DNA of 64,000 nucleotides from an uncultured Planctomycetia bacterium (GCA_964421015.1 CAYQUS010000005.1:10063-74062); one strand, 5' to 3'; positions 38,296 through 59,578 are shown, counted from the first letter of the stretch. Made by a program: numbers and translations. The notes: generated from the sequence alone by a model not told the origin.

Positions 38296-38313
38296 CTACC
38301 CGGAGGGGGCAAG

Positions 38314-39369: not shown

Positions 39370-39380
39370 AAGGAGTCAGC

Positions 39381-40109: not shown

Positions 40110-40132
40110 GTTTTAAAACAAGGAGGTCATAC

Positions 40133-41562: not shown

Positions 41563-41583
41563 CTGTCTTTTCCCGGAGGGATA

Positions 41584-42750: not shown

Positions 42751-42752
42751 TT

Positions 42753-43163: not shown

Positions 43164-43194
43164 GTTTTAATCGGAAAAGAGAGATATTTTTCTC

Positions 43195-43223
43195 TTGACA
43201 AATGATACTCGGGTGGTATCATT
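43195..43223 (+). promoter_or_regulatory. Promoter with a perfect palindromic operator upstream of the Rrf2 regulator
   Basis: TTGACA (43195-43200), a 17-nt spacer, then ATCATT. Palindrome AATGATAC-N6-GTATCATT overlaps the spacer and -10 element. Confidence 0.6.
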
Positions 43224-43239
43224 AATAAAAGGAAAAAAC

Positions 43240-43653: not shown

Positions 43654-44510
43654 CTAAACGTTCGATAATCACAATAGACGATAAAAAATGCGACGGATGC
43701 GCGTTATGCGTGCCTAACTGTCCGGAAGGCGCTATACAGATAATAGACGGTAAGGCCAGGCTTGTAAGCGACCTGTTTTGCGACGGTCTGGGGGCGTGCA
43801 TAGGGCACTGCCCTAAGGGAGCGATAAAGATAGAGGAGAGGGAAGCTGAGCCTTACGACGAGAAAAGGGTAATGGAAAATGTGTCTAAGCACGGCTCTAA
43901 TGTGATCAAGGCTCATCTTAAACACCTGAAAGATCACGGTGAAGAAGAGTATCTTAAAGAAGCTGTGGATTTCCTGAAAAAGAACAGGATACCTGTACCG
44001 GACTATGAAGGCTGCGGATGTAAGTCGGAAATGCCGGGTTTTAGTTCCTGTCCGGGGGCCAGGGTCATGGATACAAGGCCGGGTTCCGGTGATGCCTTGG
44101 CATCAGGGGATGAAACAGGCCAGAGAAAGTCGGAGCTTACACAGTGGCCCGTTGAACTTCACCTTGTGCCTCCCGGAGCATCTTTTTTTAAGGGGAGAGA
44201 TGTTCTTATTTCCGCTGACTGCGTGGCTTATGCCCTGGCAGATTTTCATAAAGACTACCTTAAGGGCAGGGCTTTGGCGATAGCGTGTCCCAAACTTGAT
44301 TCGGGACAGGAAGTGTATCTGGAAAAAATAAAGGATCTTATAGATAAGGCCGGGATAAAAACCCTGACGGTCATGACCATGGAGGTCCCATGCTGCATGG
44401 GACTTGTCTCTCTTGTCAGGAAAGCGGCAGAATCGGCGGAGAGAAAGGTCCCGATAGAACACATAACCGTCGGGATAAACGGGTCCGTGCTAAGCAGGAA
44501 AAAAGTTTAG
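43650..44510 (+). CDS. Ferredoxin-like protein with 2x[4Fe-4S] motifs and a Cys-rich C-terminal domain
   Basis: CDGCALCVPNCP and CDGLGACIGHCP motifs. C-terminal CPKLD...VPCCMG. Confidence 0.6.
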   Translation: MTKRSIITIDDKKCDGCALCVPNCPEGAIQIIDGKARLVSDLFCDGLGACIGHCPKGAIKIEEREAEPYDEKRVMENVSKHGSNVIKAHLKHLKDHGEEEYLKEAVDFLKKNRIPVPDYEGCGCKSEMPGFSSCPGARVMDTRPGSGDALASGDETGQRKSELTQWPVELHLVPPGASFFKGRDVLISADCVAYALADFHKDYLKGRALAIACPKLDSGQEVYLEKIKDLIDKAGIKTLTVMTMEVPCCMGLVSLVRKAAESAERKVPIEHITVGINGSVLSRKKV

Positions 44511-44547
44511 TTTATAGGAACAGGCGGTAAAATCCAAGGAGGGAAAC

Positions 44548-46212
44548 ATGTTTTGCAGGCAGTGTGAGCAGACGGCTATGGGCAAGGGGTGCGACAAACA
44601 AGCTGGGGTATGCGGTAAGACCGATGAGACGGCGGTGCTACAGGACCTCTTAATACACAGCCTTAAAGGGATAGCGATCTATGGTAACATGGCAAGACCC
44701 CTGGGCGTTAAGGACCCGGAAATAGACCGTTTCATGATGGAAGGTCTTTTTAGCACGATAACGAATGTCGATTTCGATCCGGAAAGGCTTAAGGGACTTT
44801 TATCTGCGTCTTACAAAATGAAAGCGAGGATAAAGGATTCTTTCGAGAAAGCTTACAAAGAGAAAAATAAAAAAGACTTTTCAGGAACTCTTCACTCTTC
44901 GGCGTCATGGGAACCCGCCTCTTCAACGGAAGGATTGATAGAGCAAGGCAGGAAAAATGGTATTTTGTCCCCCGAGGGGATATCCGAAGACGTGAGGAGC
45001 CTCAGGGAGATAATTCTGTATGGTCTTAAAGGCATAGCGGCTTACGCGGACCATGCCGCCGTCCTCGGGAGAACCGAGGAAGAAGTAAGCGCTTTCTTTT
45101 ATGAGGCGCTTGCGGCGATAACAGACGATAAATTATCAGCTGACGCTCTTACCGGTCTTGTGTTAAAAGCCGGCAGTGTGAACCTTAAATGCATGGAGAT
45201 GCTGGACGCGGCGAATACCGGAAGATTCGGGCATCCGGTTCCCACTAAGGTCTTTCTTGGGGCCAAAAAGGGACCGGCTATACTCATAACCGGTCATGAC
45301 TTGGCCGATATGGAGGATCTTCTAGAGCAGACTAAAGACAAGGGAATAAACGTGTACACGCATGGGGAAATGCTGCCAGCCCACGGTTATCCGGGTCTTA
45401 AGAAGTATCCCAATTTCGCGGGGCATTTCGGAGGAGCCTGGCAGGATCAGCAGAAAGAGTTCCCGTCTTTTCCCGGAGCCATGCTTTTTACCACGAACTG
45501 TATACAGAAACCCCTGGATTCTTACAAAGACAGAGTTTTTACAACAGGGCTTGTGGCCTGGCCCGGAGTGGTCCATATCTCGGGAAAGCCCGGCAAGAAA
45601 GATTTTACGCCTGTTATTAAAAAAGCTCTCGAAGCGGGAGGATATAAAGAAAATGTCCCCGGTAAGGAAATAACCGTGGGATTCGCTCACAACACGGTAT
45701 TGAGCGTAGCCGACAAAGTGGTGGATCTTGTAAAAAGAGGTAAAATAAAAAGGTTTTTTCTCATCGGAGGGTGCGATGGGGCAAAATCCGGAAGGAACTA
45801 TTACACAGAGTTCGCCGAGAAAGTCCCTAAGGACTGTGTGATCATAACTCTGGCCTGCGGGAAGTTCAGGTTCAACAGGCTTGAGTTCGGGGATATAGAA
45901 GGAGTGCCTCGTCTTCTTGACTGCGGACAATGCAACGACGCTTTCTCGGCCATAAAGATAGCCTCGGCGCTTGCGGGAGTGTTCAATTGTTCCGTTAACG
46001 ACTTACCGCTTTCCATGATACTTTCATGGTACGAACAGAAAGCTGTGTGTATTTTGCTTACGCTTTTTTCACTCGGAATAAAAGGCATAAAACTTGGGCC
46101 GAGTTTGCCCGCATTCGTATCGCCTAATGTGCTTAAGATCCTTGTGGAAAAATTCAACATAAGCCCTATATCCACAGTGGACCAGGATCTTAAATCTGCT
46201 CTTGGGAACTAA
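44548..46212 (+). CDS. hcp: Hybrid-cluster protein / hydroxylamine reductase
   Basis: N-terminal MFCRQCEQTAMGKGC...GVCGK cubane cluster motif and Hcp-like length (554 aa). Confidence 0.9.
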   Translation: MFCRQCEQTAMGKGCDKQAGVCGKTDETAVLQDLLIHSLKGIAIYGNMARPLGVKDPEIDRFMMEGLFSTITNVDFDPERLKGLLSASYKMKARIKDSFEKAYKEKNKKDFSGTLHSSASWEPASSTEGLIEQGRKNGILSPEGISEDVRSLREIILYGLKGIAAYADHAAVLGRTEEEVSAFFYEALAAITDDKLSADALTGLVLKAGSVNLKCMEMLDAANTGRFGHPVPTKVFLGAKKGPAILITGHDLADMEDLLEQTKDKGINVYTHGEMLPAHGYPGLKKYPNFAGHFGGAWQDQQKEFPSFPGAMLFTTNCIQKPLDSYKDRVFTTGLVAWPGVVHISGKPGKKDFTPVIKKALEAGGYKENVPGKEITVGFAHNTVLSVADKVVDLVKRGKIKRFFLIGGCDGAKSGRNYYTEFAEKVPKDCVIITLACGKFRFNRLEFGDIEGVPRLLDCGQCNDAFSAIKIASALAGVFNCSVNDLPLSMILSWYEQKAVCILLTLFSLGIKGIKLGPSLPAFVSPNVLKILVEKFNISPISTVDQDLKSALGN

Positions 46213-46294: not shown

Positions 46295-46324
46295 TTGACA
46301 TAAACCTGCCCTTTGCGTTACAAT
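46295..46324 (+). promoter_or_regulatory. Sigma70-like promoter for giant ORF 2
   Basis: TTGACA, an 18-nt spacer, then TACAAT. Confidence 0.45.
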
Positions 46325-46474: not shown

Positions 46475-49400
46475 ATGGGATCTAGCAGAAAAATTCTCCG
46501 CAAGATATTCTCATTTCTACTGCTAATAACTTTTTCGTTACAAAATGTTTCTTCCGGCCAGGATATTTTTACAGATACTCTGGCCACCAGCCCGGTTTCT
46601 TCGGAAAAACCAGTTACAGAGGAATCTTTTCTTTTCAGTCAGGCGATACGCGGCGACATAAGAATGATGTCCGTTATTTACTCTGTTGCTCAGGCCTTTT
46701 TTGAGTCGGGGGAGAGTAAAGAAGGTCTTCTGAAAACTCTTTCCGGAAAATTTTTCTGGAACGATTCTTTCTTAAGAGGTCTAAACATAGATCTTGAGAA
46801 CATATCTATGGAGGATTACAGAAATGACGGTTTTTTGAGCATACCTTTTGTGTCTGAGGACGGTAGGCTCAGCGGAATAGTTGGCGTATGTCCGGTGACG
46901 TCCCGGGTGGTTTCCGCCAGGGATGATAAGAGCTGGGAGAGACTCGGCGAATACACTTTTTTTATTGAAAGCAGACCCAGGGGAACGGATATAACGTCAA
47001 GAGATATGCGCGGCCCGGCGGCTTTTTCTGAAACCAATCCCATACTGGAGGGGCTAATAGTTTCGGGAAAGGTGGTAGAGCTTTCCATGGACACAGAAAA
47101 CGGGGATTTTAAAGCCCACAGAGTAAAGTGGGTGGAGGACTATGTCCCGGGCGCCACTCCGGAAGACGTGTATAAAGGCTCTGAGATATCTGTCTCCCAG
47201 GTGCTGTCACGGTCCGAGAGGAAAGTTTTGCGCAGGTGGATGAGAGAGCATTCGGTGCGCGGGTCTCCGGTCAAGTTCAGGATAATACTGGGAGATCCCG
47301 CGATAGGGTGGTTCAGCGATATGGACCATTCTTACATAGCACATGCCGGGTTCAGGGATAATGCGGTCTACATGGGTTCTCTTCTCTTAAGGTATCTGCT
47401 CCGGGAGGAGTCATCCGGGGTAAGGTCGGAGATACTCGATAATGACGAGTTCAGGCACCTTAGCGGTCTGGATCACGGGACAGCCGAAGAGATAGAAAGA
47501 AGGCTTTCTCTTGTGAGCGAGGCCATGGAAAGGGAGAATTTGCAAAGAACAGGAGCGGCTATAGCTGAAGACGATGTAGATTTTATGGTCGCGGAGATGA
47601 AGTCGCTTCTTTCCTCGGGTGACACTTACGGGATACTGAACTTTCTGTCGGCGGTGAATGACGTAGCTCTCACAAGAGGTAAATATCCGGTTGAGAGCAC
47701 ATACCCCATAAAACACGCCGTAGCTCTTCTTTCTAAGAAAGAACAGGATCTGCTTATGGATATACTCACCGGAACGGTTTCGAGGTCCGAGGAATATCGC
47801 TACAAGATAGTGGTTGACGAGCTCATTTCTATGCTGGATGAGGACCAGGTGCTTCAGGAATGGATAAAGGTTTACGCCCCCAATCTTGAGGGCCGCTCCC
47901 TGTGGCAGATATCTCCGGAAATATGGCATGAGGCGGGTGGGCTTGCCAGGGTAATGCAGTACCACGGCGCCGGTATAAAGCATCTCATAGGACAGTCAGG
48001 AGTGAGGTTCCGGCATATAGAGCCCCATTATCAGAACAGGATAGATGCCCAGGGTAATCCCGGGAAGTTGGACTACACTGACGCAGCCCATATAACCCAT
48101 CCGATACAGGGAGAGCTTGAGGAAGTGGCAAGATATTCCGTGGAACTTAACGGCAAGGACGTCAATGTTATAGTAAGCCGAGGCGTTAACGACCTGGGGA
48201 TAGAAATATATCTCATACGTGACGAGGGAGGAGTTTACACACACTCGCTCTACAACTACAGGAATCCATGGGAAACAAGGACGGATCTGCCAACATGGGA
48301 GGAGTTTTCGGTTTTTTATTCAAAGGCTTCTCTTGAGCTGGTGAGAATAATAGAGGAAAGGGAAAAGACCGCGCTCGAGAACCTGCACAAAAAATGGAAA
48401 GCTCCTCTTCTTCATCTAAATGATTCCCAGACCGCCCTTGTAGCGGCTTTCCGTAAAATATACTATGACGAGGATCCGGTTCTTGGCAAGGCGATAGTGG
48501 CTTTTACCACACACACCTATGGTAATAGAAGGGATTATCCGCTTAACGAGGGTTATGGTGACAGGGTACTCAATTTTATGGGCATACCTGAAAAATACCG
48601 GGAGTTTTTCCGGCATATCAAGCCCGGGACGGGCTATGTTTACGACATGGCCTCGGCAGGGCTGCGAATGTCGGATTGGCAGGGAGCCGTATCTAGAGCG
48701 CATCGCGATGACGTGGAAGTTTACGATGAATGGATAAATCATCCGGAAGGTGAGGCTCTTGCGGAATATTACAGGGAAGTCGGAGGACGGTTCAACCTTG
48801 TGGGGGTTTCCAACGGAGACCTGAGATCCAAGACCATGGTATACTTTACCGAAAAGCTCAGGAAACTCTACGGCTCGGACGTGGATGTGGAAGACCTATC
48901 CCCGGAGCAGGTAGCGGAGGCCAAGAAACTGGCTAAAGCTGAACTCAGGGTTTCGGAAAATAAGAATTTCTACTCAAGCCGCGGTTCCGATGACAGGTCA
49001 GGACCTATGCTTGATCCTGATCAGATGGTGGTTTCATATTCAGGCAGGCTTGTGCCTGAAAAAGCCGGCAGATCCAGGGCTTTCACCGACAATAATATCG
49101 AGGAGATGGTAAAGAGCGGTATACAGGTGGTCATATACGGTAACGTTCAATCAAACAACCCAGCCAGCGACAAGCTCAGGGACGATCTAATAGCTTTGAC
49201 GGAAAGGCTAAAAGAAAAGAATTATGAAGGCAGGCTTGTTTTTGTTCCGAGATTCAGCCTGAACGACCAGAGAGCTCTTCTGGCTGCCAGCGACGTACAG
49301 GTGCAGGATTCGCATCCGGCCACAGAAGCCGCGGGTTTTACCGAGGCGGATATTTCGGCCTGCGGTGGCATAGAGGTGGGGACGAGAAGGACTGACAACG

Positions 49401-51844
49401 AGATAGGAGAGGGGCTTTTTGAGGCTCAGGGAATACCTATGGATTTGGCCGTTCCGGGGCATGGGAATGTCATGATACCCGAAAGGCTTGACGAGGCTTC
49501 TTACCTGGCGGTTCTTTTTGATCTTAACGATGCTTATGTCAGGGGGGATCTGAAATATTACCAGGCCACTTCCGTGAGGCTTAGCCGGGTTCTGGAGGCC
49601 AGGCTCACATCGGCGGCGTATCTCAGGCAGTTCAACGATGCCATAGCGCAGAAGGAGAGGGAGAATATCGTGAAAGAACCTTTAAAAACGGACCAGGGAC
49701 GGGAAAGAGCTATGACAACCTCCGGGAAGAACAGCCTTATGGCCCAGATATACCGTTCGGACCCCTCGGCTTACGCGGCCTACAGGGTCAGCGATTACCT
49801 GGAAAGTTCGGATGTGGAGAATGCCCAAAGGGTGTTCTTTACCTGCGAGGCTTTTCAGGACAGACAGGAAAACCTTTCATCCGTGGCGGACACATTTAAC
49901 CGCATAATAGACATGGTAAAAAGCGGGAACATAGGTCATGAAACGGCTAAGGAGTTCTTTTTCAAAATAAAATCCGACGCCATGGAATTTTCGCGGTCTT
50001 ACGCGGTAGCGGAGGCTGTGCAGATAATGTCCATACAGTCGCTTTCGATATTGAGCTGGCAGAAAAGAGGGCTGCGTGAAGCGGGGAGTTTCAGGATAAC
50101 GGCCGATCCACATAAGATGGTGAAAGCCGGAGACAAGGAGAGGGGCCCGAGTTTTCTGAGTATACCGAGAGAGTCCGGCATAAACGAAGCTTTTGCCGAG
50201 GGACACGCGGGTTTTTACTGGCGCGGTATAGAGAAACTTAAAAAGCTCGGGAGCAACGTGATAGCCGCTCTCGGAAAGGTCGACATGACGGGATCCAAGG
50301 CAAAGTCCACGGTCATGTACGCTATGGATCACGGTTTTGTACCAGTTCCGGGAGGGATACTTTCCGATACATGGAAAGGGAAGATAAGCACGCTGCACGA
50401 GACAGCTTTTATAAACGATTTAATCCCGGGGTCTTCCCAGGTCACGTCAACCGGGGCCGGGCATTTTCAGGGGGAAAAACTCGACGTTAAGTATGTTACG
50501 GAAGGTTCCGGGATACAGGTGAATGTCAGGTACGACAGTCGCGGGGAAATAGAAGAGGTGCTTGTTCACAAGGTGTCAAAAGGCGATTGGACGCTGGCTC
50601 TGCCGGGTTATGTAGATTATGTTATAAATCTGGGTGGGCTCAGGTTCAATGATTTTTCTGTGAGCCTTTCCTACGATGAGGCTGTACTTTTTAACAGCAA
50701 GATACTTCACGGAAAAGGCGATGCCGGCATGGAGGACGGGGCTTTTCTCAAGGAGATCGAGGCTGTTTCGCGAAGCATAGAGGTAGACAAAGCGCCTTAT
50801 GCCGCTTTTATGACGGAAACAGCTCCTGCTCTTCTTGAGACCGTTAAGGGTATACCGAGCTCAAGATGGATAGGGGCATTAAGTGATTTTGCCGGGAAAA
50901 ATACAGGGGATCTTACGGAGATGTATCTTTCTTTTTCCTCTTTTGATGAAGTGAGGAAGAAAGTGAGGGAACTGGCCGAGAATTTCAGGGCTAACAGGGA
51001 AAACTCTGAGGCTTTGACGGTTTCTCGGGCGGCGGAAAACGCCGGGGGTATGGACGTTTACGGCGAACCCTTGACTCTCCAGCCCGGGGAGAAACTTTTT
51101 GGAGAGCCCACGCCGGATTCTTTCTCGGGGATAGAAGGGGTAACGGATTACATAGAATCCAGCGAAAAGATCATGGGCGACATTCTTTCGGAGGAAAACT
51201 CCCAGGACAGGCTTTTAAGGGTTCCCGTGGAATGGATAGAATCTGTCGGAATTGATAACGCCAGGGGCGTTATCGAGGCGTTCCAGTCATCGCCGCGTGG
51301 TTTTGTGGAATTTTATTCGTCGGACCGGCCCGAGGGAGTGAAGGACCCTTACGGCGTAGTTACAAAAGACATCCCGGAAGCTCTTACAGCCTCTAAAAGA
51401 ACTAGAGCCAATACCGTGACGCTTTTTCCGGTATTTAAAGGCGAGGTTCTGCCGGCGCGCAGTAACAAGAGATGGGGCGGAGAAGATTATCGAAAAAGCA
51501 TCATATCTCCTTTCGGTTTCAACTATGATGAGGCCGGTGTTATAAGGAGCATCATACTTGGGCTAAGGCTTTCCGCCATAGCCGAAGACCCTGCAAAAGA
51601 TGAAAACAGCGATTTTGTCCTTGAAACCTATTCGCAGTACAGGGAACTTTGTTTGAACCAGGGAGAGGATGAAAGGTCTTTTGACCTGACGGCTCATGAT
51701 ATAGTGAATATGGCCAAAGGCGATGAAAGGGTACAGATATTGTCTCTGAATAAGCTGATAAAACTTCTCCCGATAATGCCTTTCAATACTGAAGAGCTCA
51801 GGATAATGTATAATCGGTTCAAGGAGGCCTTAATAAGAGCATAA
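46475..51844 (+). CDS. Giant (1789 aa) secreted protein with an embedded GT-B glycosyltransferase-like domain (glycogen/starch synthase-like)
   Basis: N-terminal signal peptide. EAGGLARV resembles the GT5 KTGGLGDV motif; RLVPEKAG and EAAGFTEADISACGG resemble the GT-B C-terminal motifs. The rest is unrecognised. Confidence 0.5.
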   Translation: MGSSRKILRKIFSFLLLITFSLQNVSSGQDIFTDTLATSPVSSEKPVTEESFLFSQAIRGDIRMMSVIYSVAQAFFESGESKEGLLKTLSGKFFWNDSFLRGLNIDLENISMEDYRNDGFLSIPFVSEDGRLSGIVGVCPVTSRVVSARDDKSWERLGEYTFFIESRPRGTDITSRDMRGPAAFSETNPILEGLIVSGKVVELSMDTENGDFKAHRVKWVEDYVPGATPEDVYKGSEISVSQVLSRSERKVLRRWMREHSVRGSPVKFRIILGDPAIGWFSDMDHSYIAHAGFRDNAVYMGSLLLRYLLREESSGVRSEILDNDEFRHLSGLDHGTAEEIERRLSLVSEAMERENLQRTGAAIAEDDVDFMVAEMKSLLSSGDTYGILNFLSAVNDVALTRGKYPVESTYPIKHAVALLSKKEQDLLMDILTGTVSRSEEYRYKIVVDELISMLDEDQVLQEWIKVYAPNLEGRSLWQISPEIWHEAGGLARVMQYHGAGIKHLIGQSGVRFRHIEPHYQNRIDAQGNPGKLDYTDAAHITHPIQGELEEVARYSVELNGKDVNVIVSRGVNDLGIEIYLIRDEGGVYTHSLYNYRNPWETRTDLPTWEEFSVFYSKASLELVRIIEEREKTALENLHKKWKAPLLHLNDSQTALVAAFRKIYYDEDPVLGKAIVAFTTHTYGNRRDYPLNEGYGDRVLNFMGIPEKYREFFRHIKPGTGYVYDMASAGLRMSDWQGAVSRAHRDDVEVYDEWINHPEGEALAEYYREVGGRFNLVGVSNGDLRSKTMVYFTEKLRKLYGSDVDVEDLSPEQVAEAKKLAKAELRVSENKNFYSSRGSDDRSGPMLDPDQMVVSYSGRLVPEKAGRSRAFTDNNIEEMVKSGIQVVIYGNVQSNNPASDKLRDDLIALTERLKEKNYEGRLVFVPRFSLNDQRALLAASDVQVQDSHPATEAAGFTEADISACGGIEVGTRRTDNEIGEGLFEAQGIPMDLAVPGHGNVMIPERLDEASYLAVLFDLNDAYVRGDLKYYQATSVRLSRVLEARLTSAAYLRQFNDAIAQKERENIVKEPLKTDQGRERAMTTSGKNSLMAQIYRSDPSAYAAYRVSDYLESSDVENAQRVFFTCEAFQDRQENLSSVADTFNRIIDMVKSGNIGHETAKEFFFKIKSDAMEFSRSYAVAEAVQIMSIQSLSILSWQKRGLREAGSFRITADPHKMVKAGDKERGPSFLSIPRESGINEAFAEGHAGFYWRGIEKLKKLGSNVIAALGKVDMTGSKAKSTVMYAMDHGFVPVPGGILSDTWKGKISTLHETAFINDLIPGSSQVTSTGAGHFQGEKLDVKYVTEGSGIQVNVRYDSRGEIEEVLVHKVSKGDWTLALPGYVDYVINLGGLRFNDFSVSLSYDEAVLFNSKILHGKGDAGMEDGAFLKEIEAVSRSIEVDKAPYAAFMTETAPALLETVKGIPSSRWIGALSDFAGKNTGDLTEMYLSFSSFDEVRKKVRELAENFRANRENSEALTVSRAAENAGGMDVYGEPLTLQPGEKLFGEPTPDSFSGIEGVTDYIESSEKIMGDILSEENSQDRLLRVPVEWIESVGIDNARGVIEAFQSSPRGFVEFYSSDRPEGVKDPYGVVTKDIPEALTASKRTRANTVTLFPVFKGEVLPARSNKRWGGEDYRKSIISPFGFNYDEAGVIRSIILGLRLSAIAEDPAKDENSDFVLETYSQYRELCLNQGEDERSFDLTAHDIVNMAKGDERVQILSLNKLIKLLPIMPFNTEELRIMYNRFKEALIRA

Positions 51845-51865
51845 TCGGACGTTTTTTTTAGAAAA

Positions 51866-51905
51866 AGGGATGCATGCCTTTCGGCTAGCGTCCCTTTTTT
51901 TTTAC
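51866..51905 (+). terminator. Rho-independent terminator
   Basis: GGGATGC...GCGTCCC stem plus T9 tract. Confidence 0.55.
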
Positions 51906-52116
51906 CATAAATTGATTTTTGTTAGTGTTTCAAAAAGTTTGAAAAATAGAATTGCTCCTTATCGTGTCTCAAGGCAAACTCTATTTAGGCGCTATGGCGC
52001 AGGTGAAATAAGAAAATGAACAGTGGCCTTGCAGCCTTATAGGTCCCTCCGTTAAAACGGAGGGAGTATTTTTTGTGTGGACAATTAATTTTATGTTTTA
52101 AAAACTGTGCAAGAAT

Positions 52117-55100
52117 GTGTTTCTGAGAGGCAAAATGGGTATCGGCGGATTTTATCACATAACTGTGAAAATGAAACGGACCATAAGAAGATCCGTGGCC
52201 GTTTTTATCTCTGCCGCCGTGTTTTTTGGAAATTACTGTGAGTTCCGGTGTGAAAATGTTTTTGCCCAGGATGACGAGACGTCTTACGCCTCTTCTTTGG
52301 ACAAGGGGCAATACTGTGTTCTTGACGTTGACACATTTACGCTTCCTCCGCATCTGGGGGATGTAAGGTTCTCCCACAAAGGCCATTCCGCCAGGATGGT
52401 CATACACATACAGGACGCGCATTGCAATTATTTCGCGCAGACCAAAATAGCCGATATCATCGACTATCTCAACAAAGAGTACGGAGTTACTACGATCAAT
52501 GTCGAGGGCGGAGCCGGGGCGTATGATCTTTCGGCGTTTACCGCCATATCAGGCTCTGAGATACGGCGTGAGGTGGCGGAATATTTCGTAAAACGCGGGG
52601 AAGTTAACGGCGCGGAGCTTTACGCCATAAATAACCCCAGGGACGTCTCTCTCTGGGGCATCGAAGACAAGGAACTTTATCTAAGGAACCTCAAGGTTTA
52701 CAGGGATTCCCTTTTGTATAAGCCGGAGGTGGATCTTTATCTGAAAGAACTCAGGCATGCGATAAATAACCTTAAGAGGCATATATACACTCCCGAGCTT
52801 CTCAAGATCGATATGGCCTATAACTCCTATAAGGCCGGGAACATGGATTTTAAGGCGTATCTTGATTTCCTGATATCCACTGCCAAAGGGAGTGGGATCT
52901 CGGTAAAAAAATATCCCAACCTGTACCTCATAGGGCAGGCCATGGAAAAAGAGGCCAGCGTTGATTTTAAGAGAGCCAACGCCGAAAGGGGAGTCCTGGT
53001 CGACAAGATGAAACAGATACTTTCCCGGAACGAAATGGGAGAGCTTTTGTCTAAGACCGTAGACTTTAAGACAAAGAGAATATCGGTAAAGGACTTCTAT
53101 AATTATCTTCTCGGAAAAGCCAGGGAATGCGGAATAAAAACGTCTGATTATCCCGCGCTTTCGGGATATATCGTGTATGTATCCCTTTTCGAGGCCGTAG
53201 ACTCTTTTCTTGTTATGGGAGAGCTCGATAAGCTCGAATCTGAGCTCAAGGAGCCCTTGTACCGCGACCAGAGGGAAAAGGAGCTTAACGTTCTTTCCCG
53301 CAATCTGGCATTGTTGGGGAATATTTTCGAACTTTTGCTCACAAAAACAGATTTTGCGTATTACAAGGAAAATAGCGCGTCCTTCGGCGCTGCGAGGTTC
53401 CTTTCTTTTATAGAAAAGGAGGCGCCGGCTTTCGGGATAACTGCAAAGGTTTCCCGGGAAGCGGTCAACCTTGACAGATACCTGTCCGACATAATCAGGT
53501 TCTATGAACTGTCCTTCGAGAGAGACAAGGCCTTTGTGAAAAATATGCGTTTTGCCTCGTCGCCCAGCGGCAACGAGGCTGCCGTCATAATGACAGGAGG
53601 GTTCCACACAGAGAACCTGTCGGAACTTTTCCGCAGTGAAGGATATTCGTACCTGTCCATTATGCCGAAATTCACATCCGAGGAAAATTACGATAACCCG
53701 TACTTCGCTATTCTTGCCGGGCAGACCGCCGATGTTCAGCAGATGCTGCGCTCCGCCCTGGCACAAACTGCTTTGCTGCAGGTCGTAAGCCTGCTTAACA
53801 GTGATCCGGAGATGTCGGACGCGTTTTACGCCAAAGGCGAGTCGGATATTTTCAGGACCGCGGTCGGGGTAATAGCCTATTTAAGGGAATCGGGATATTC
53901 GCTTTCCGATATCGAGATAAAAGGAATAACTCTCAACTCTTCCGATCTTGGATTGGATGTGAGGTTTTCCGAACGGGGGAAAGAAGATGTTAATCTGACG
54001 GTCCCTTGGGGCAATGCCGGAAGGATAAGCCTTGAAGACAGGCGTGTACAGCTTGAAGCTCTGCGAACGGCCTCTTACAGCGGGGCTTCATCGGGGGCCA
54101 TGACAGAAAAATATTTTGTTCATAAATGTATGAAGAACCTGGAAGAAGGGAAAACGCTTTTAGTTGTTACGGGTGAAACTTCGGGATTGAGCGATCTTAA
54201 CAGCCGGTGGGGACATGTGGGCGTGGATACGGTAAGGGATGCTTTCGGCGAAAAGATGTATGAAATCCTTACGTCCAGAAGAAACGAACTTGCCGGTATG
54301 GGTGTGGAATTTTCGGGTCACAATAACCCCTATGGGGGGAGGTGGCACTTTGCCTTTACGGTAGATGAAGATCAATACAGCAGCGCAAAATTTAAAGAAG
54401 AGATAGAGAATATCTATTTAGCGGCGAAAAACGCTCTAATTGAGGACGCCAGGATCTCTAAGGACATAAGCTCCGAGCTCGATTCCCTGAACGTGGTCTT
54501 CGGTGTGTCTGAACCTATTAGCGCGTCGGGGGTTATGGATCGCATGAGTTCTCTGAAAGAAGGCGACGAGGAGAGGCACCAGTCTCTTCTGGATTCTTAC
54601 GCCAGATATAAGGGGACGGCTCCGGAGGAACTATCTGCCGAGGCTTTTGACGAAATGGGAGAGGTATATAAATACGCGGTCAAAATGCTTTTCGGCGACA
54701 GCCTCAGAGGAATAATATACGCCGAAAATGTTTATTATTCCGATAAAGCTCCCCAACTTCTTTCCAGGCTTCTGCGCGAAGAACTTGAAGGAGGGATAGC
54801 CGCTAACAATGTTTTCTCGAAGGGGGCAGTGCCCTCCGGGGTGGAGAGGGTGTTTTTCTCTTCTGATCCTGCCGGACAGGGGACAATAAAAGACTGGTAT
54901 AGAAGTGAGTGGACGCGCGGCTGGGGTAAATACGATGTCTTCAGGTTCAGGATACCGAATTTTACGCAGATAGAAAGAACCTTAGAGGACCTGGGTGATG
55001 GGAGCCTCACCGAGAGCGAGGCGTCGAGGATAATAGCCGAAAGATTGTCCTTAAATTTTCCAGATATGAGGAGTTTCGGGCAGCTTACCGATTATATTAC

Positions 55101-56529
55101 GGGTCTTGCGGTCCTTTCCCATGATGGTATTCCCCAGGGCAGGGACCTTATTAATACCCTCATGAGAAAATATTCCGAACCCGACGACGGTTTTATGTTC
55201 AGGATAAACCTTGATTTTGATAATCTCTCGCAGGCGCCAGTCGCGTACGGTGATATTGTCAATTCCTCCGGAGTTAATCTCATAGAGGAGGCTTTTAGCA
55301 GAGTTCTAGGAACCGCTGTCACGGTAAGGTCAGGGTCCGGCGATGAGATGGTTGTAGTGGGGTATTCCCCGTTATCGGAAAAGGATACAAAAGACATGAT
55401 CTCTGGGGTTGTTAAAGAACTTAACGAAAAACTGCTTCCTGGACTTACGTCTATTTCTTCCGAAGGTGAAGAGAAGACAATAAGATGGACACTGATGGAT
55501 GGGACGGAATGGTCTCCTTCTATAAGCGCCGGAGTCTCGTTCTTTGATCTGGGGAATAAGGATGATATCGAAAAACAGCTTTCGCTTCTTGACGCTAAAT
55601 CCGAGCAGGCGATTACCGAAGTAAAGAATTCCGGGAAAAGGAATGTTGTTTTTTATGACGAGAATTTGCCGGGCGAGGACCTGTACGAAGAGAACATGGA
55701 ACGTGCCATACCTGCGGATCTTGTGGATGTAGCTCTTAAGACAGTTTCGGCGGCCTACGCGGAAAGAGCCCTGAAAGATCCTTTTGTTACCCCGGATCTT
55801 GCCGCTATTTCTGTGAGAGCCCCGCCGGAAAGCCTTGATATGCCCGAGAGCGTTACCGGAAGTATTTCCCAGCTTATGGGCAATGTCAGGAATCATAACT
55901 ACCCGAATGTCCATATTATAGGTCTGACAAAAGAGGAGTTCGAGATAGAGAGAACATATATGCAGAATCTGAGCAATGAAACAAAACGCTACTGCACAAG
56001 ACAGGTAGGAAATTCCAACTATTACCAGGTTTTCTATAACATGGAAAGCAGCGATGTGCCGGGAGACGTAAAGGAAGCGGTACTGTCTTTGCCTGAAAAC
56101 GTGAGGGGTTCCGAGGAAGCTCGTTTTGTAGCTTCAGGTAATGAAGGCCTGAGGGCCAAGGTGGAAAGTGTTCTTAAAGACGCTGAGGTTACGGGAATGG
56201 GTCAATATGTGGGTATGGTCGAGGGTAACTTTTCACCCGCTGACGGCTACGAGAACCAGAGGTATTCTCACGTAAGCCTTGCTTTTTACGGTATAGGGCT
56301 TATGGAATGGGACAGATCGGAAGGGGCTACAAAGAAAGCTATAGCCGAAAGCCTCAAAACCCTTCTCGGCGCGATAGTAGATAATTTTGATGAGGTTAAA
56401 AATCTGGATCCGGAAGATGTGATACGGCAGGTGCTGAGCGGAAACTTCATAATGAATATAAAGAAAGTGGACTTCGAGAACATAAAAGCTTTCATGGAAT
56501 CAGAAAGGGCGATCCTAAGGTCGCTGTAA
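52117..56529 (+). CDS. Giant (1470 aa) secreted protein of unknown function
   Basis: Signal peptide after the internal Met (MKRTIRRSVAVFISAAVFFG). No confident domain; HIQDAHCN and VIMTGGFHTENL are faintly reminiscent of TraB/Tiki GxxH...GxGHL motifs. Confidence 0.5.
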   Translation: MFLRGKMGIGGFYHITVKMKRTIRRSVAVFISAAVFFGNYCEFRCENVFAQDDETSYASSLDKGQYCVLDVDTFTLPPHLGDVRFSHKGHSARMVIHIQDAHCNYFAQTKIADIIDYLNKEYGVTTINVEGGAGAYDLSAFTAISGSEIRREVAEYFVKRGEVNGAELYAINNPRDVSLWGIEDKELYLRNLKVYRDSLLYKPEVDLYLKELRHAINNLKRHIYTPELLKIDMAYNSYKAGNMDFKAYLDFLISTAKGSGISVKKYPNLYLIGQAMEKEASVDFKRANAERGVLVDKMKQILSRNEMGELLSKTVDFKTKRISVKDFYNYLLGKARECGIKTSDYPALSGYIVYVSLFEAVDSFLVMGELDKLESELKEPLYRDQREKELNVLSRNLALLGNIFELLLTKTDFAYYKENSASFGAARFLSFIEKEAPAFGITAKVSREAVNLDRYLSDIIRFYELSFERDKAFVKNMRFASSPSGNEAAVIMTGGFHTENLSELFRSEGYSYLSIMPKFTSEENYDNPYFAILAGQTADVQQMLRSALAQTALLQVVSLLNSDPEMSDAFYAKGESDIFRTAVGVIAYLRESGYSLSDIEIKGITLNSSDLGLDVRFSERGKEDVNLTVPWGNAGRISLEDRRVQLEALRTASYSGASSGAMTEKYFVHKCMKNLEEGKTLLVVTGETSGLSDLNSRWGHVGVDTVRDAFGEKMYEILTSRRNELAGMGVEFSGHNNPYGGRWHFAFTVDEDQYSSAKFKEEIENIYLAAKNALIEDARISKDISSELDSLNVVFGVSEPISASGVMDRMSSLKEGDEERHQSLLDSYARYKGTAPEELSAEAFDEMGEVYKYAVKMLFGDSLRGIIYAENVYYSDKAPQLLSRLLREELEGGIAANNVFSKGAVPSGVERVFFSSDPAGQGTIKDWYRSEWTRGWGKYDVFRFRIPNFTQIERTLEDLGDGSLTESEASRIIAERLSLNFPDMRSFGQLTDYITGLAVLSHDGIPQGRDLINTLMRKYSEPDDGFMFRINLDFDNLSQAPVAYGDIVNSSGVNLIEEAFSRVLGTAVTVRSGSGDEMVVVGYSPLSEKDTKDMISGVVKELNEKLLPGLTSISSEGEEKTIRWTLMDGTEWSPSISAGVSFFDLGNKDDIEKQLSLLDAKSEQAITEVKNSGKRNVVFYDENLPGEDLYEENMERAIPADLVDVALKTVSAAYAERALKDPFVTPDLAAISVRAPPESLDMPESVTGSISQLMGNVRNHNYPNVHIIGLTKEEFEIERTYMQNLSNETKRYCTRQVGNSNYYQVFYNMESSDVPGDVKEAVLSLPENVRGSEEARFVASGNEGLRAKVESVLKDAEVTGMGQYVGMVEGNFSPADGYENQRYSHVSLAFYGIGLMEWDRSEGATKKAIAESLKTLLGAIVDNFDEVKNLDPEDVIRQVLSGNFIMNIKKVDFENIKAFMESERAILRSL

Positions 56530-58315: not shown

Positions 58316-59578
58316 CTAATCAATCCTTCCTGATCGGATTATCTTGGAGTAGCATCTGGCGGACGGGCGGATGGTGCGCTGCTGGGTGCTGAAGTCTACT
58401 TCTACAAGGCCAAATTTTTTGCTGTAACCCGAGTCCCATTCAAAATTGTCGAGGAGCGACCAGTGTAGGTATCCTTTTACGTGGAAGCCTTCGTTCAAGG
58501 CTTTTAGGACGGCGGTGAGATGTTCTTTTATGTAATTTTTTCTTCTGTCGTCGTTTAACGTGCCGATACCATTCTCGGTTATCATCATCGGAAGCCGGTA
58601 TTTGGCGAAAGCTTTTATGACCTCATACAGCCCTTCCGGATAAACTTCCCAGCCCATATCTGTTATCTCTCTTTTCCCGGCGCGCGGGGGGGGAGAGACC
58701 ACTTCTCCGAAAGGATGCGCGAAAAGGTCTTTTTCTCCCCGGATGAACTGCCTGAAATAATAGTTCAGCCCTATGAAGTCGAGCGTACGCGCTGCGGGGA
58801 GCCTTTCTTTGCGAAATGGATCAAACTCTATTCTGCCGTTTACTAGGGAAGATATGAAGTTGTAGTTATGGAACCTGCTTCTAAAGGCGCAAGCCAGGCG
58901 GTCAGAAATTGAAAAAGGCGATTCAGGATGAAAAGCTGTAACAGCTTTTGCTATGCCTATTTGTGTATTTTTGCATGACGTATTTTTTATCATTTCATAT
59001 GAAAGGGCATGGGCTTTGAGCATGTTTCTTAGGACGGTGACGGCCTCATTGAAATTCTTATGACATGGCGGCCACTGACCCCAGAAATACGCGAGTATGG
59101 CGAGTATGTTAGGTTCGTTTATAGTGATCCAGTATTTAACACGGCTTCCAAGTTCCCGAGCGGCTTTTTCGGCGAAACGCGCGAAAATGCAGGGAGAATC
59201 AGGGTTAAGCCATCCGCCTTTTTTTGAAAGCCATAAAGGCAGTGTAAAGTGGTGGAGCGTAAGTATAGGTTCTATATTTTTTTCGAGCAGTGAATCAAGG
59301 ACAGCTCTGTAATGCTCCCATTCCTTATCCTGCCATGTATTCTCGGAAGTCTCTATCCGGCTCCACTCAAGGCCAAGACGATGGGCGTTATGCCCGAGTT
59401 CCGCGGCTATACGGAAATCGTCGTTAAAACGGGTGTAGTGTTCGCAGGCCCGGCCGCATTCTTCGTGCGCGGAAGCTTTTTCCCAATCGGCCCAGTCACA
59501 GGTCGAATTAGCGCCTTCAACCTGATAAGCGCTCGTCGACGCGCCCCACAAAAAGTTTTCCGGGAATTTGTTTTGCAT
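58316..59578 (-). CDS. bgl: GH1 beta-glucosidase
   Basis: N-terminus FLWGASTSAYQVEGA and catalytic TENG/NEP motifs (ITENGIG; YWITINEPN). Confidence 0.9.
   Translation of the reverse strand: MQNKFPENFLWGASTSAYQVEGANSTCDWADWEKASAHEECGRACEHYTRFNDDFRIAAELGHNAHRLGLEWSRIETSENTWQDKEWEHYRAVLDSLLEKNIEPILTLHHFTLPLWLSKKGGWLNPDSPCIFARFAEKAARELGSRVKYWITINEPNILAILAYFWGQWPPCHKNFNEAVTVLRNMLKAHALSYEMIKNTSCKNTQIGIAKAVTAFHPESPFSISDRLACAFRSRFHNYNFISSLVNGRIEFDPFRKERLPAARTLDFIGLNYYFRQFIRGEKDLFAHPFGEVVSPPPRAGKREITDMGWEVYPEGLYEVIKAFAKYRLPMMITENGIGTLNDDRRKNYIKEHLTAVLKALNEGFHVKGYLHWSLLDNFEWDSGYSKKFGLVEVDFSTQQRTIRPSARCYSKIIRSGRID

Follow-up and report, generated by a model that had tools for sequence, protein, structure and literature searches.

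Two linked Omnitrophota genes for putatively exported modular proteins with enzyme-like cores

Two adjacent genes and their families

The window (the whole 64,000-nucleotide stretch of DNA analysed) carries two long neighbouring genes, ORF1 and ORF2, both on the plus strand (Table 1). Our analysis reproduced the initial annotation's coordinates (46475-51844 and 52117-56529) and lengths (1789 and 1470 aa). For ORF2, the ATG at 52135, which has GAGAGG 4 nt upstream and gives the 1464-aa product called by NCBI (P0032), is a likelier start than the GTG at 52117; ORF2 residue numbers here are counted from the GTG.

Both are real genes, neither chance open reading frames nor chimeras. Independent Logan assemblies and NCBI yield identical full-length proteins (P0289, 1789 aa; P0292, 1470 aa), collinear homologues number dozens across NCBI, ENA, JGI and Logan, AlphaFold models of the tested regions of both proteins are confident, and base composition is even throughout the region. 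Assembly chimerism, which the initial annotation had raised, pseudogene fusion and random open frames have no support beyond an ambiguous ORF2 start (GTG 52117, ATG 52135 or ATG 52171); the collinear homologues and identical independent assemblies refute them, and they deserve practically no credence.

The proteins had been described as lacking recognisable homology; both in fact belong to sizeable families that, as far as the inspected relatives show, are confined to the uncultivated phylum Omnitrophota. ORF1 has 26 full-length collinear homologues at 37-70% identity and ORF2 more than 200 relatives, and all collinear homologues of either are from Omnitrophota. The N-module of ORF2 recurs in 383 confirmed stretches among GTDB species representatives, the best 80 of the 383 all being in Omnitrophota metagenome-assembled genomes (MAGs). 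Several of these MAGs are labelled 'Planctomycetia'.

The two genes also travel together. The order of an ORF1-type gene followed by an ORF2-type gene recurs on at least 12 other contigs. Of 70 loci, 7 have an ORF1-type gene ending <1.5 kb upstream of the N-module gene and 5 more have one within 6.5 kb, the linked loci being those whose N-module is closest to that of ORF2. An ORF1 homologue is not always beside an N-module gene (for example, L001). Because two strong terminator-like hairpins separate them, ORF1 and ORF2 are probably not one operon; we read them as separately terminated, evolutionarily linked genes. The promoter-like site upstream of ORF1 is only suggestive, since such sites are no more numerous in the region than in shuffled sequence.

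Table 1 Features of the ORF1-ORF2 locus (aa, residues of the respective protein; ↓, predicted cleavage)
Feature	Position	Strand	Description
Promoter-like site	46295..46324	+	TTGACA-18-TACAAT, 11/12, 150 nt upstream of ORF1
ORF1	46475..51844	+	ATG start, 1789 aa; N1, N2, GT-B, helical linker, cupin, C-terminal module
ORF1 signal-peptide-like N-terminus	46475..46558	+	aa 1-28, MGSSRKILRKIFSFLLLITFSLQNVSSG↓QD; heuristic; 21/25 family members
ORF1 N1 module	46562..46999	+	aa 30-175, weakly conserved; also N-terminal in relatives with another middle (L024, L029, L038, L084)
ORF1 N2 region	47000..47890	+	aa 176-472, conserved; invariant H290, Y299, E407, K413
ORF1 divergent GT-B domain	47897..49624	+	aa 475-1050, GT5/GT35 lineage
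ORF1 helical linker domain	49640..50041	+	aa 1056-1189; AlphaFold model 2, helices 2-142
ORF1 cupin module	50042..50704	+	aa 1190-1410; invariant STGAGHFQ 1325-1332, D1337, K1339
ORF1 C-terminal module	51122..51841	+	aa 1550-1789 (~240 aa), α/β part and helical bundle, ends at stop codon
Hairpin with U-run, intrinsic-terminator-like	51860..51901	+	Directly after ORF1; ΔG -24.3 kcal/mol, z -6.1
Second hairpin with U-run	52042..52066	+	ORF1-ORF2 spacer; ΔG -17.2, z -3.9
ORF2	52135..56529	+	1464 aa from ATG 52135; 1470 aa from GTG 52117
ORF2 signal-peptide-like N-terminus	52135..52266	+	…MKRTIRRSVAVFISAAVFFGNYCEFRCENVFA↓QDD; heuristic; 84/86 family members
ORF2 N-module	52306..53916	+	aa 64-600 (~540 aa); five-strand parallel α/β core split by all-helical insert aa 185-476 (~290 aa)
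ORF2 N-module strands 1-3			β1 93-98 then QDAHCN; β2 126-129 then EGG; β3 178-181 then IED
ORF2 N-module strands 4-5			β4 487-492 then TGGFHTEN; β5 511-517
ORF2 palm/GGDEF-like domain 1	54154..54516	+	aa 680-800, degenerate; β1 ends TGETS, hairpin NPYGG/RW
ORF2 inter-palm region	54517..55191	+	aa 801-1025, mostly helical
ORF2 palm/GGDEF-like domain 2	55192..55641	+	aa 1026-1175; β1 ends NLD1033-F-D1035, hairpin S-G-S-G-D1076-E1077
ORF2 C-terminal module	55855..56526	+	aa 1247-1470, ends at stop codon

ORF1 joins a divergent GT-B domain to a cupin

The motifs quoted in the initial annotation are present in ORF1 (EAGGLARV, aa 486-493; RLVPEKAG, aa 858-865; EAAGFTEADISACGG, aa 951-965), and the embedded GT5-like domain proposed from them was borne out by Pfam PF08323 at aa 479-747 (E 5.3e-12; score 46.4 bits, threshold 22.7). 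Four GT-B motifs, EAGGL (486-490), HLND (647-650), RLVPEK (858-863) and EAAGFTEAD (951-959), contain the family invariants E486/G488/G489, H647/N649/D650, R858/K863 and E951/G954/E957. Like glycogen synthases (GlgA, GT5) and α-glucan phosphorylases (GT35), ORF1 has an N-terminal GT-B half matching Pfam GT5 and carries R-L-x-x-x-K-G and E-x-x-G motifs, and its H-L-N-D resembles both GT5 H-x-H-D-W and GT35 L-N-D-T-H. Unlike them, it gives weak NCBIfam matches to glgA and α-glucan phosphorylase that fall far under the family cut-offs (26.9 versus 328 bits; 22.6 versus 191.7 bits), replaces the Lys of the GT5 K-x-G-G-L motif with an invariant Glu, lacks the PLP lysine of GT35 and embeds the domain in a 1789-aa predicted exported protein. 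The N2 region before it had no match in Pfam, NCBIfam or PDB.

The flanks had been called unassignable, yet the C-terminal flank holds a phosphoglucose isomerase (PGI)-like cupin and a conserved terminal module. The cupin model (AlphaFold model 2, pLDDT 83, pTM 0.81) found cupin-type PGIs as its top Foldseek matches in PDB (E 1e-5, TM 0.6), the closest solved fold being the archaeal enzyme PfPGI (1X7N/1X82; E 1e-5, TM 0.55-0.62), and one ORF1-family member has a Pfam GPI match (0.009). A G-H-F motif occupies the cupin motif 1 position. Identity to PfPGI is only 11-14%, however, and measured against the published ligand set (PMC6627849) the module fails to preserve the His88/His90/Glu97/His136 metal site (H-F-Q…K), with only the first of four ligands clearly kept (H-x-Q for H-x-H); the ORF1 module also spans ~220 aa with extra elements and sits within a multi-domain protein. 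In relatives the module co-occurs with hexose-phosphate enzymes. It lies inside proteins of up to 5930 aa; one of 4796 aa has it adjoining hexokinase, PGM/PMM, NDP-sugar transferase and FBPase domains, and a different one has it beside mannose-6-phosphate isomerase domains. Given a divergent glycogen-synthase/phosphorylase-type GT-B domain together with an archaeal-PGI-like cupin, ORF1 may be a hexose- or α-glucan-handling protein.

ORF2 combines a TIKI-like module with a double palm

TraB/Tiki-like motifs had been noted in ORF2 as faint. HIQDAHCN (aa 97-104) and GGFHTEN (aa 494-500) are both there, and they look better than faint, since in the AlphaFold model (pLDDT 80.8) both lie just behind strands of a five-strand parallel β core, where the invariant residues of the module are also positioned. 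D100-x-H102, E130 28 residues on and H497 reproduce the 2His/2Glu layout and His-Glu spacing of TIKI/Ere enzymes (PMC6254334). By motif, spacing and predicted topology, the N-module resembles a His/Glu hydrolase of the TIKI/Ere type that carries a large helical lid. With the TIKI/TraB/erythromycin-esterase/ChaN superfamily, which includes the MARTX effector RRSP (PMC6254334) and whose members are often extracytoplasmic or part of toxins and joined to diverse additional domains, it shares the helix-flanked core, an acid-x-His behind the first strand, the Glu behind the one that follows and another His further on, again behind a strand. It differs in that the first acid is Asp rather than Glu, that the ~290-aa helical insert splits the core and that database matches are lacking: the family was not returned by Pfam (whole protein or spliced core) or PDB profile searches, nor was it among the Foldseek matches listed.

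The middle of ORF2, likewise thought unassignable, is a tandem palm/GGDEF, Cas10-like unit. Its best Foldseek matches in PDB were Cas10/Csm1/Cmr2 (E 2e-5 across 570-690 columns) and GGDEF diguanylate cyclases (TM ~0.7), with the same result from a viral library; Pfam GGDEF was not significant. As in Cas10, one chain holds two palms, the first degenerate and the second with the acidic hairpin motif, and as in both families the metal-binding Asp residues close β1 and the G-D-E turn links β2 to β3, which are the canonical positions. The acidic and Gly motif residues of palm 2 are invariant in 11 homologues. Unlike Cas10, ORF2 has no HD domain, neither CRISPR nor Csm/Cmr genes adjoin it, and PADLOC gave no match; unlike GGDEF proteins, its family signature is [S/A]GDE (SGDE in palm 2) rather than GG[D/E]EF or GGDD, and guanine-reading residues are not recognisable. 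The heuristically predicted signal peptide sets it apart from both.

End modules frame exchangeable cargo

In 101 of the 120 ORF2 relatives listed, the C-module ends the protein. Among 100 relatives with both end modules complete, the insert between them ranges from 73 to 1758 aa, and 28 have essentially none; other cargos include Ser/Thr kinases, PPDK_N/PEP-utilizers, HATPase_c, a GlnE-like nucleotidyltransferase, a metallophosphatase and methyltransferases. The ORF1-type C-module is always C-terminal, in host proteins of 215-3773 aa, and the GT-B block between N1 and the C-terminal flank is swapped or missing in relatives.

The two C-modules themselves appear to be distantly homologous. A hidden Markov model built only from ORF2-type C-modules matches the C-terminus of an ORF1-family member (P0021, E 3.4e-5), and a profile-profile comparison is collinear (P 2.6e-6, probability 89%). 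A narrower comparison gave P 4.5e-4, whereas its 13 controls, column-shuffled or reversed, reached P 0.011 at best; iteration from the ORF1 side does not reciprocate.

Predicted export

Signal-peptide-like starts had been proposed for both proteins, and both N-termini do show a Sec-type pattern by heuristic judgement (positive n-region, 12-13-aa hydrophobic core, small cleavage-site residues, acidic mature N-terminus), with predicted cleavage at SSG↓Q in ORF1 and VFA↓Q in ORF2. The pattern recurs in 21 of 25 ORF1-family and 84 of 86 ORF2-family N-termini. The N-terminus of the 2791-aa ORF of the window is also signal-peptide-like; that protein has no significant similarity to ORF1 or ORF2. On these sequence features, we infer that the ORF1 and ORF2 proteins exit the cytoplasm.

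Alternatively, the N-terminal helix might tether them to the inner membrane face, or go unused, leaving ORF1 as a variant glycogen-metabolism enzyme and ORF2 as a second-messenger (c-di-GMP-type) signalling enzyme with ordinary cytoplasmic substrates. Every recognisable fold (GT5-like, cupin PGI-like, GGDEF/palm) is a classical cytoplasmic enzyme type, the relatives' kinases, PPDK_N and HATPase_c are likewise cytoplasmic and nucleotide-dependent, ORF1 homologues are annotated 'glycogen/starch synthase' in databases, and a recent catalogue (bioRxiv 10.64898/2026.06.07.730766) predicts membrane anchoring with a cytoplasmic bulk for 46% of its giant proteins. We nevertheless consider this unlikely. 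The charges fit an N-in/C-out orientation under the positive-inside rule (4-5 Lys/Arg before the core, acidic residues after), cleavage sites are AxA-like (…DAWA↓VVD in relatives, VFA↓QDD in ORF2), the core falls short of the length that a stable transmembrane anchor needs, and neither protein has a second hydrophobic or internal transmembrane segment to bring the chain back. The GT5 nucleotide-binding Lys is replaced in ORF1, and TIKI-superfamily proteins, Tiki, ChaN and PrgY among them, typically work outside the cytoplasm.

Proposed function

We favour, at somewhat better than even confidence, exported modular proteins of an Omnitrophota-specific toolkit, each with a signal peptide, a family-specific N-module, an exchangeable enzyme block and a related ~230-aa end module. 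This reading builds on the observed domain architecture, family distributions, cargo variation, gene linkage and signal-peptide-like N-termini; the enzymatic roles we infer. Both proteins would be exported by Sec with a cleavable signal peptide. The exchangeable block of ORF1, GT-B followed by the PGI-like cupin, would act on hexose or α-glucan, and the cargo of ORF2 would be a Cas10-like palm pair, one degenerate and one with catalytic acids, that binds two NTPs and joins them within one polypeptide, as a nucleotide cyclase or oligonucleotide synthase. The common C-module may serve as a shared address, anchor or assembly module. Counter-points are that folds depending on nucleotides and sugar phosphates would lack obvious substrates beyond the cytoplasm and that the GT-B domain, cupin and palm 2 depart from their reference families at key catalytic positions.

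Catalytically dead folds, exapted as binding or structural modules of an extracellular coat or host attachment, seem a distinctly improbable alternative. Residues are substituted in the GT-B domain (K to E, no PLP Lys), cupin (H-x-Q, K for the Glu ligand; PMC6627849) and palm 1 hairpin (GGRW), the C-module is almost without invariant residues, as expected of a packing or assembly module, and a coat or adhesion role has been proposed in the literature for the giant ORFs of the phylum. Yet each substituted position is in turn fixed across families at 37-70% identity, strand ends are rich in clustered polar residues, as is typical of active sites, and in palm 2 the two metal-binding Asp residues are retained along with the G-D-E turn. 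The surface or adhesion role first suggested also finds no match in content, which is enzyme folds; domain searches returned no adhesins, lectins, dockerins or repeats.

Relation to Omnitrophota giant proteins

A glycosyltransferase fold in a secreted giant had seemed unusual, but in Omnitrophota it is common, and large proteins of the phylum that bear a signal peptide and a GT5 domain have been published. Among the domain types of Archaeovorins, GT5 ranks second in frequency (West-Roberts et al. 2023, bioRxiv 10.1101/2023.11.21.568195). Of 916 Omnitrophota proteins with 10 kAA or more, 153 contain PF08323 and 94% have a signal peptide or transmembrane helix (Nielsen & Lui 2026, bioRxiv 10.64898/2026.06.07.730766). 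In the papers searched, including passages of these giant-protein descriptions, we did not find the N/C-module frame, double palm, cupin assignment or gene pair.

With those giant proteins, ORF1 and ORF2 share the phylum, signal-peptide or membrane-associated N-termini and a 'cytoplasmic' enzyme repertoire (GT5 starch-synthase domain, PPDK_N, HATPase_c, kinases, methyltransferases, sugar-phosphate enzymes), and the ORF1-type cupin lies inside 2-6 kAA proteins that also carry hexokinase, PGM and FBPase. At 1.5-1.8 kAA, by contrast, they are far under the 10-30 kAA study thresholds, with one cargo block each and no internal transmembrane helices. Because cytoplasmic-type enzyme domains lie between conserved end modules, ORF1 and ORF2 may be smaller relatives of the phylum's giant proteins. 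Since such reactions require NTPs or sugar phosphates, the exported enzymes might work at the cell envelope or outside it, for instance where the cell touches a host or prey; in that view ORF1 and ORF2 would be small single-cargo counterparts of the multi-enzyme Archaeovorins.

Two giant genes in an Omnitrophota chromosome

Two adjacent plus-strand genes, ORF1 (46475-51844, ATG start, 1789 aa) and ORF2 (52117-56529, GTG start, 1470 aa), have the coordinates and lengths given in the initial annotation and are each 100% identical to their database proteins (P0001 and P0032, respectively). The 1789-aa and 1470-aa products were recovered again in independent Logan assemblies. Twenty-six full-length homologues, collinear with ORF1, share 37-70% identity with it, and ORF2 has more than 200 relatives, so that both belong to families where no recognisable homology had been noted. 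Chance ORFs, frameshift fusions and the assembly chimaeras raised as a concern in the initial annotation are therefore excluded. The most plausible start of ORF2 is ATG 52135, which follows GAGAGG (4 nt upstream) and yields the 1464 aa of the NCBI call; ORF2 residues are numbered here from GTG 52117.

The window belongs to a contig of 110 kb from a Candidatus Omnitrophota MAG, and neighbouring genes are ordinary chromosomal ones (CTP synthase, glutamate synthase and glutamate dehydrogenase). Directly 5' of ORF1 stands Rrf2-ferredoxin-Hcp, the end of an oxidative-stress/Fe-S block, and 3' of ORF2 are aldo-keto reductase and GH1 glycosidase genes. The block is contiguous (30833-46212, +) and encodes a NifS-like protein, NifU, ferritin, a flavodiiron protein, two rubrerythrins, a thioredoxin-reductase-like protein, Ogg, an ArsP-type permease, DsbD_TM, UbiA, Rrf2, ferredoxin and hybrid-cluster protein, a gene content typical of anaerobes. 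Across the window (1-64000) the plus strand carries nearly all genes, with the GH1 gene (58316-59578) as the sole clear exception, and GC skew is above 0 in each 2-kb bin; both features are consistent with a long leading-strand stretch. The window also holds a 525-aa ORF without a Pfam match (60132-61709, +) and an 858-aa ORF (8574-11150, +) with a strong PPDK_N match (E 8e-50) and no signal peptide, a second PEP/pyruvate-dikinase-like protein, apparently cytoplasmic.

Both N-termini run from 4-5 Lys/Arg through a 12-13-residue hydrophobic core and small residues to an acidic stretch, with heuristically placed putative cleavage sites at SSG/Q (ORF1) and VFA/Q (ORF2). This property, rather than the sequence itself, is kept in 21 of 25 ORF1-family and 84 of 86 ORF2-family N-termini, and many ORF2 relatives have an AxA-type site (for example, DAWA/VVD). 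By these features Sec signal peptides are well supported, if heuristically predicted, on both proteins. At 1789 and 1464 aa, and with no further hydrophobic segment in either, the two proteins fall short of Archaeovorins, the published giant multi-enzyme proteins of Omnitrophota (10 kAA or longer, or encoded by ORFs >20 kb), which tile numerous domains and contain transmembrane helices.

A conserved frame with exchangeable cargo

BLAST coverage showed that most ORF2 relatives share just aa ~64-600 (N-module) and ~1247-1470 (C-module), the middle (aa ~612-1240) being common to ten relatives only. By HMMs, the C-module is the exact C-terminal end in 101 of the 120 relatives listed. In the 100 proteins that have complete copies of the two modules, 73-1758 aa separate the N- from the C-module, and 28 of them have <150 aa there (N+C only, ~890 aa). 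Cargos exchanged within this conserved frame include Ser/Thr kinases, ABC1 kinases, PPDK_N/PEP-utilizer, HATPase_c, a GlnE-type nucleotidyltransferase, metallophosphatase and methyltransferases. Scanning metagenomes for three motifs of the ORF2 cargo uncovered five more loci, at each of which the cargo lies inside the N-module frame. Searching for homologues with the ORF2 cargo alone (53950-55850) missed even the identical P0032, a null that reflects a gap in word-index sensitivity and is uninformative.

In an AlphaFold model of ORF2 (aa 51-1245, 22 sequences, pLDDT 80.8), the cargo forms two palm domains with a helical region between them. Foldseek against the PDB placed the Cas10 proteins Csm1 and Cmr2 at the top (E 2e-5 to 1e-4 over 570-690 columns), with TM of just 0.15-0.22 and high rmsd; next came many GGDEF diguanylate cyclases (DosC, DgcZ, YfiN and others) at a domain-level TM of ~0.7 and 15-18% identity, and a structure search of a viral library gave GGDEF matches only. 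In palm 2, β1 ends in N-L-D1033-F-D1035 and S-G-S-G-D1076-E1077 sits at the β2-β3 hairpin, the canonical positions, and these acidic and Gly motif residues do not vary among 11 homologues. At the equivalent places palm 1 reads T-G-E-T-S and Y-G-G-R-W and is, judging by these motifs, degenerate. The GG[D/E]EF signature is absent, as ORF2 reads SGDEM (consensus AGDE) and GGRW, and the GGDEF profile PF00990 was not significant (E 0.15 in 1 of 11 members). A sequence-profile search of the PDB with the ORF2 family was equally uninformative (best match MorA GGDEF domain, E 1.2).

Cas10 likewise has tandem palms in one polypeptide, and a degenerate plus an active palm in a single chain is its way of joining two NTPs; the ORF2 double palm might condense NTPs in the same style. 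Within the window, we found no HD nuclease domain, CRISPR context or Csm/Cmr genes, the partners of Cas10, and neither ORF1 nor ORF2 matched PADLOC defence models.

The N-module was modelled with a five-strand parallel β core, in which invariant polar residues directly follow the strands: I-H97-I-Q-D100-A-H102-C-N after β1, E130-G-G after β2, I-E183-D after β3 and T-G-G-F-H497-T-E-N after β4. An all-helical insert of ~290 aa separates β3 and β4. Members of the TIKI superfamily combine a five-strand parallel β core with a 2His/2Glu site, which in RRSP consists of E3900-x-H3902, E3930 28 residues on and H4030; the equivalent pair in Bcr135 is H85/E113 (RRSP structure paper, PMC6254334). In the ORF2 model, D100-x-H102, E130 and H497 appear to repeat this layout and its 28-residue His-Glu spacing, with Asp as the first acid, a correspondence drawn by motif and not by superposition. 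The N-module matched no TIKI/TraB/Ere/ChaN profile (PF01963, PF04187, PF05139), no protein of this superfamily stood among the Foldseek hits listed, Pfam returned no TraB/Tiki/ChaN/Ere match on nine 'spliced' cores with the helical insert removed, and a PDB sequence-profile search with a deeper N-module alignment gave nothing informative, its RicF match being taken as spurious. The TraB/Tiki hint of the initial annotation thus fits the layout, spacing and predicted topology and finds no match among profiles or the listed structural hits. The shared layout and spacing make a TraB/Tiki-like N-module a reasonable structural hypothesis, under which it would be a His/Glu hydrolase.

ORF1 combines a GT-B domain with a cupin

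Parts of ORF1 as delimited by conservation along the family alignment
Part	Position	Protein
N1	aa 30-175	ORF1
N2	aa 176-472	ORF1
GT-B domain	aa 475-1050	ORF1
Linker	aa 1056-1189	ORF1
Strongly conserved block	aa 1190-1410	ORF1
Variable stretch	aa 1411-1549	ORF1
Conserved C-terminal block	aa 1550-1789	ORF1

The embedded glycogen-synthase-like GT-B domain proposed initially was borne out by Pfam, with PF08323 (GT5 starch-synthase catalytic domain) matching ORF1 aa 479-747 (E 5.3e-12, 46.4 bits against a gathering score of 22.7) and 23 of 26 family members; the GT5/GT-B-like motifs first quoted are present and invariant across the family. Full-length equivalence to GlgA fell below trusted cut-offs (TIGR02095, 26.9 bits versus 328; PRK00654, 12.5 versus 616), as did membership of the α-glucan phosphorylases, GT35 (TIGR02094, 22.6 bits versus 191.7). 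The nucleotide-sugar motif of GlgA is K-x-G-G-L; ORF1 reads E486-A-G-G-L, and the Glu in place of the motif Lys is invariant in 26 sequences. Similarly, the PROSITE pattern for the PLP-binding Lys of GT35 is E-A-[SC]-G-x-[GS]-x-M-K, and at this site ORF1 reads E951-A-A-G-F-T-E-A-D959, with Asp at the PLP-Lys position. Searching the PDB with the ORF1 family profile gave nothing informative (best match a phosphorylase, E 0.5). This family-wide motif divergence and the scores below cut-off place the domain, at the sequence level, in the GT5/GT35 lineage as an orthologue of neither GlgA nor phosphorylase, and the 'glycogen/starch synthase' label on ORF1 homologues in databases is an over-annotation.

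The flank C-terminal to this domain, previously called unassignable, contains a cupin that resembles phosphoglucose isomerase (PGI) and a conserved terminal module. AlphaFold (aa 1056-1789, 28 sequences, pLDDT 83, pTM 0.81) modelled a helical domain, a cupin barrel and a terminal α/β-plus-helical-bundle domain, and Foldseek ranks 1-11 for the cupin in the PDB were all archaeal cupin-type PGI, from P. furiosus or T. litoralis (E 1e-5 to 1e-4, TM 0.54-0.62). Pfam GPI (PF06560) weakly matched 1 of 26 family members (E 0.009). The metal ligands of PfPGI are His88, His90, Glu97 and His136 (PMC6627849). By a motif register, inferred rather than superposed, ORF1 keeps H1330 and has Q1332 for His90 and K1339 for Glu97; the module thus shares the barrel fold of cupin-type PGI but does not fully keep its metal-ligand set. 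Loss of catalysis from the enzyme folds is a less likely alternative: the substitutions in the GT-B domain and cupin of ORF1 would fit it, and the conservation of putative active-site residues in the N-module and palm 2 of ORF2 speaks against it.

HMMER, run exhaustively with the C-flank, retrieved 259 cluster representatives. In this set the cupin frequently occupies an internal position, in carriers of 2-6 kAA, and the ORF1-type terminal module invariably forms the very C-terminus of its carriers (215-3773 aa). From these sequences, the two emerge as independently mobile units. One 4796-aa protein (P0183) joins NDP-sugar/NTP transferase, PGM/PMM, methyltransferases, an ORF1-type cupin, hexokinase and FBPase in one chain, and another of 1197 aa (P0180) joins the cupin to type-I mannose-6-phosphate isomerase domains. 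Guilt by association with these two lends support to a possible hexose-phosphate role for the ORF1 cupin. Both are polyproteins of sugar-phosphate metabolism, and a relative of 5930 aa is entered at NCBI as 'mannose-6-phosphate isomerase'. Within the ORF1 family, variants consist of N1 and C-flank alone (~880-920 aa), or of N1 and C-flank enclosing a shorter GT5/phosphorylase-like part or an HPr domain. A 1004-aa protein encoded 3' of an N-module gene (L038:15848-18859) has an ORF1-type N1 followed by HD and MbnB/TglH-like domains and is another case of N1 heading different cargo.

ORF1-type and ORF2-type genes are linked

An HMM built from ORF2-type C-modules only matched the C-terminus of an ORF1-family protein (P0021, E 3.4e-5) and those of three others (~1e-3). 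Profile-profile comparison of 118 ORF1-type with 129 ORF2-type modules gave a probability of 89% (P 2.6e-6), collinear over the last ~90 columns, and a narrower comparison gave P 4.5e-4 versus a best of 0.011 among its reversed and block-shuffled controls. Iterating from the ORF1-type profile reached neither the ORF2-type modules nor the 2791-aa ORF, the third giant of the window. Distant homology of the ORF1 and ORF2 C-modules is therefore best described as probable from these profiles, and no such module is claimed for the 2791-aa ORF, which the iteration missed. Hardly any residue of the C-module is invariant, which suits packing, addressing or assembly better than it suits catalysis.

The 2791-aa ORF (22066-30441, +) has a signal-peptide-like N-terminus, PPDK_N at aa 148-397 and a receiver domain at aa 2314-2370. 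Its last ~120 aa resemble the ORF1-type C-module in places (NTVTILPYGK versus NTITLFPVxKG; tail YGELKLINERIEKILMMA versus TEELRIMYNRFKEALIRA), a similarity that was not significant (hhalign P 0.006, HMM E 2.6). BLASTP among all large ORFs of the window found no similarity among the three giants.

Of the 70 N-module genes whose upstream sequence is long enough, 7 are preceded on their own strand by an ORF1-type gene that ends <1.5 kb away, and 5 more have one within 6.5 kb; a metagenome contig provided one further case. The paired loci are those whose N-module is most similar to that of ORF2, and their downstream proteins range from 917 aa (no cargo) to >3900 aa, some with kinase cargos. Gene position is conserved and cargo turns over. 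In another contig (L003:1-25601; GCA_015231405.1, JADGBR010000009.1), an ORF1 homologue stands within a row of giant genes encoding proteins of 8026 aa, 2771 aa (with an FkbO/Hyg5-like domain), 1608 aa (phosphotransacetylase fused to acetate kinase) and 1739 aa (an N-module protein).

The 270-nt spacer between ORF1 and ORF2 holds two strong terminator-like hairpins with U-runs, at 51860-51901 (ΔG -24.3, z -6.1) and 52042-52066 (ΔG -17.2, z -3.9). The first, preceded by an A-run and followed by a U-run, could be a bidirectional terminator. Since these hairpins separate the genes, we rejected an ORF1-ORF2 operon, and the two are probably not one transcript. A near-consensus promoter-like site lies upstream of ORF1; sites of this kind are no more numerous in the region than in shuffles.

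Lineage restriction and possible role at the host or prey interface

Omnitrophota are abundant, uncultivated and apparently host-dependent nanobacteria. Scanning one genome per GTDB species with an N-module pattern returned at least 383 confirmed stretches, the best 80 of which all come from Omnitrophota MAGs (some of them third-party MAGs labelled 'Planctomycetia'), with several paralogues per genome; named ORF1 homologues are Omnitrophota without exception. ORF1 and ORF2 share with Archaeovorins this origin and an enzyme-domain repertoire that includes GT5. GT5, PPDK_N, HATPase_c and sugar-phosphate enzyme domains are published in Omnitrophota proteins of at least 10 kAA with signal peptides or transmembrane segments (bioRxiv 10.1101/2023.11.21.568195; 10.64898/2026.06.07.730766). 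A glycosyltransferase fold in a secreted giant, initially deemed unusual, is therefore not new in the phylum. None of the papers searched was found to describe an N-module (~540 aa)/C-module (~230 aa) frame whose cargo is exchanged, an N-module read as TIKI-like, a double palm of the Cas10 kind, a cupin module resembling cPGI or the conserved gene pair.

Both proteins would be exported, ORF1 would work on glucans or hexose phosphates, and the C-terminal module may direct its carriers to a common destination or assembly. As the substrates are absent from a normal periplasm, action at the host or prey interface, or inside a partner cell, would be the most coherent reading, and it matches proposals for the giant proteins of the phylum (bioRxiv 10.1101/2023.11.21.568195). 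A location facing the cytoplasm is less likely; it would suit the normally cytoplasmic enzymes that these proteins contain and sits poorly with their signal-peptide-like N-termini. The initial suggestion of surface or adhesion proteins was rejected, as no adhesin or repeat domains were found.

Pursuing the host/prey-interface reading, we advance with considerable reserve, and as a rather unlikely proposal in its full form, that the N/C frame is a lineage-specific polymorphic effector scaffold. A TIKI-like protease, exported by Sec, and a shared C-terminal address module would carry interchangeable nucleotide- or phosphate-transfer enzymes (double-palm cyclase, Ser/Thr kinases, PPDK-like) to the surface and into host or prey, with the ORF1-type partner handling glucan or hexose. 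If true, host-dependent Omnitrophota would possess an effector system that had gone unrecognised, and the frame would be the evolutionary building-block level from which Archaeovorin-type giants were concatenated. At 160-200 kDa, these proteins bring to a tractable size the odd biology of the giants, exported proteins full of normally cytoplasmic enzymes, and expose a simple grammar of signal peptide, conserved N-module, swappable cargo and shared C-terminal module. They offer testable objects: a putative Cas10-like single-chain nucleotide cyclase outside CRISPR, a TIKI-like hydrolase, a GT-B/cupin sugar module and a candidate sorting or assembly domain. Study of these objects could reveal the destination of the proteins and the effects of Omnitrophota on their hosts.
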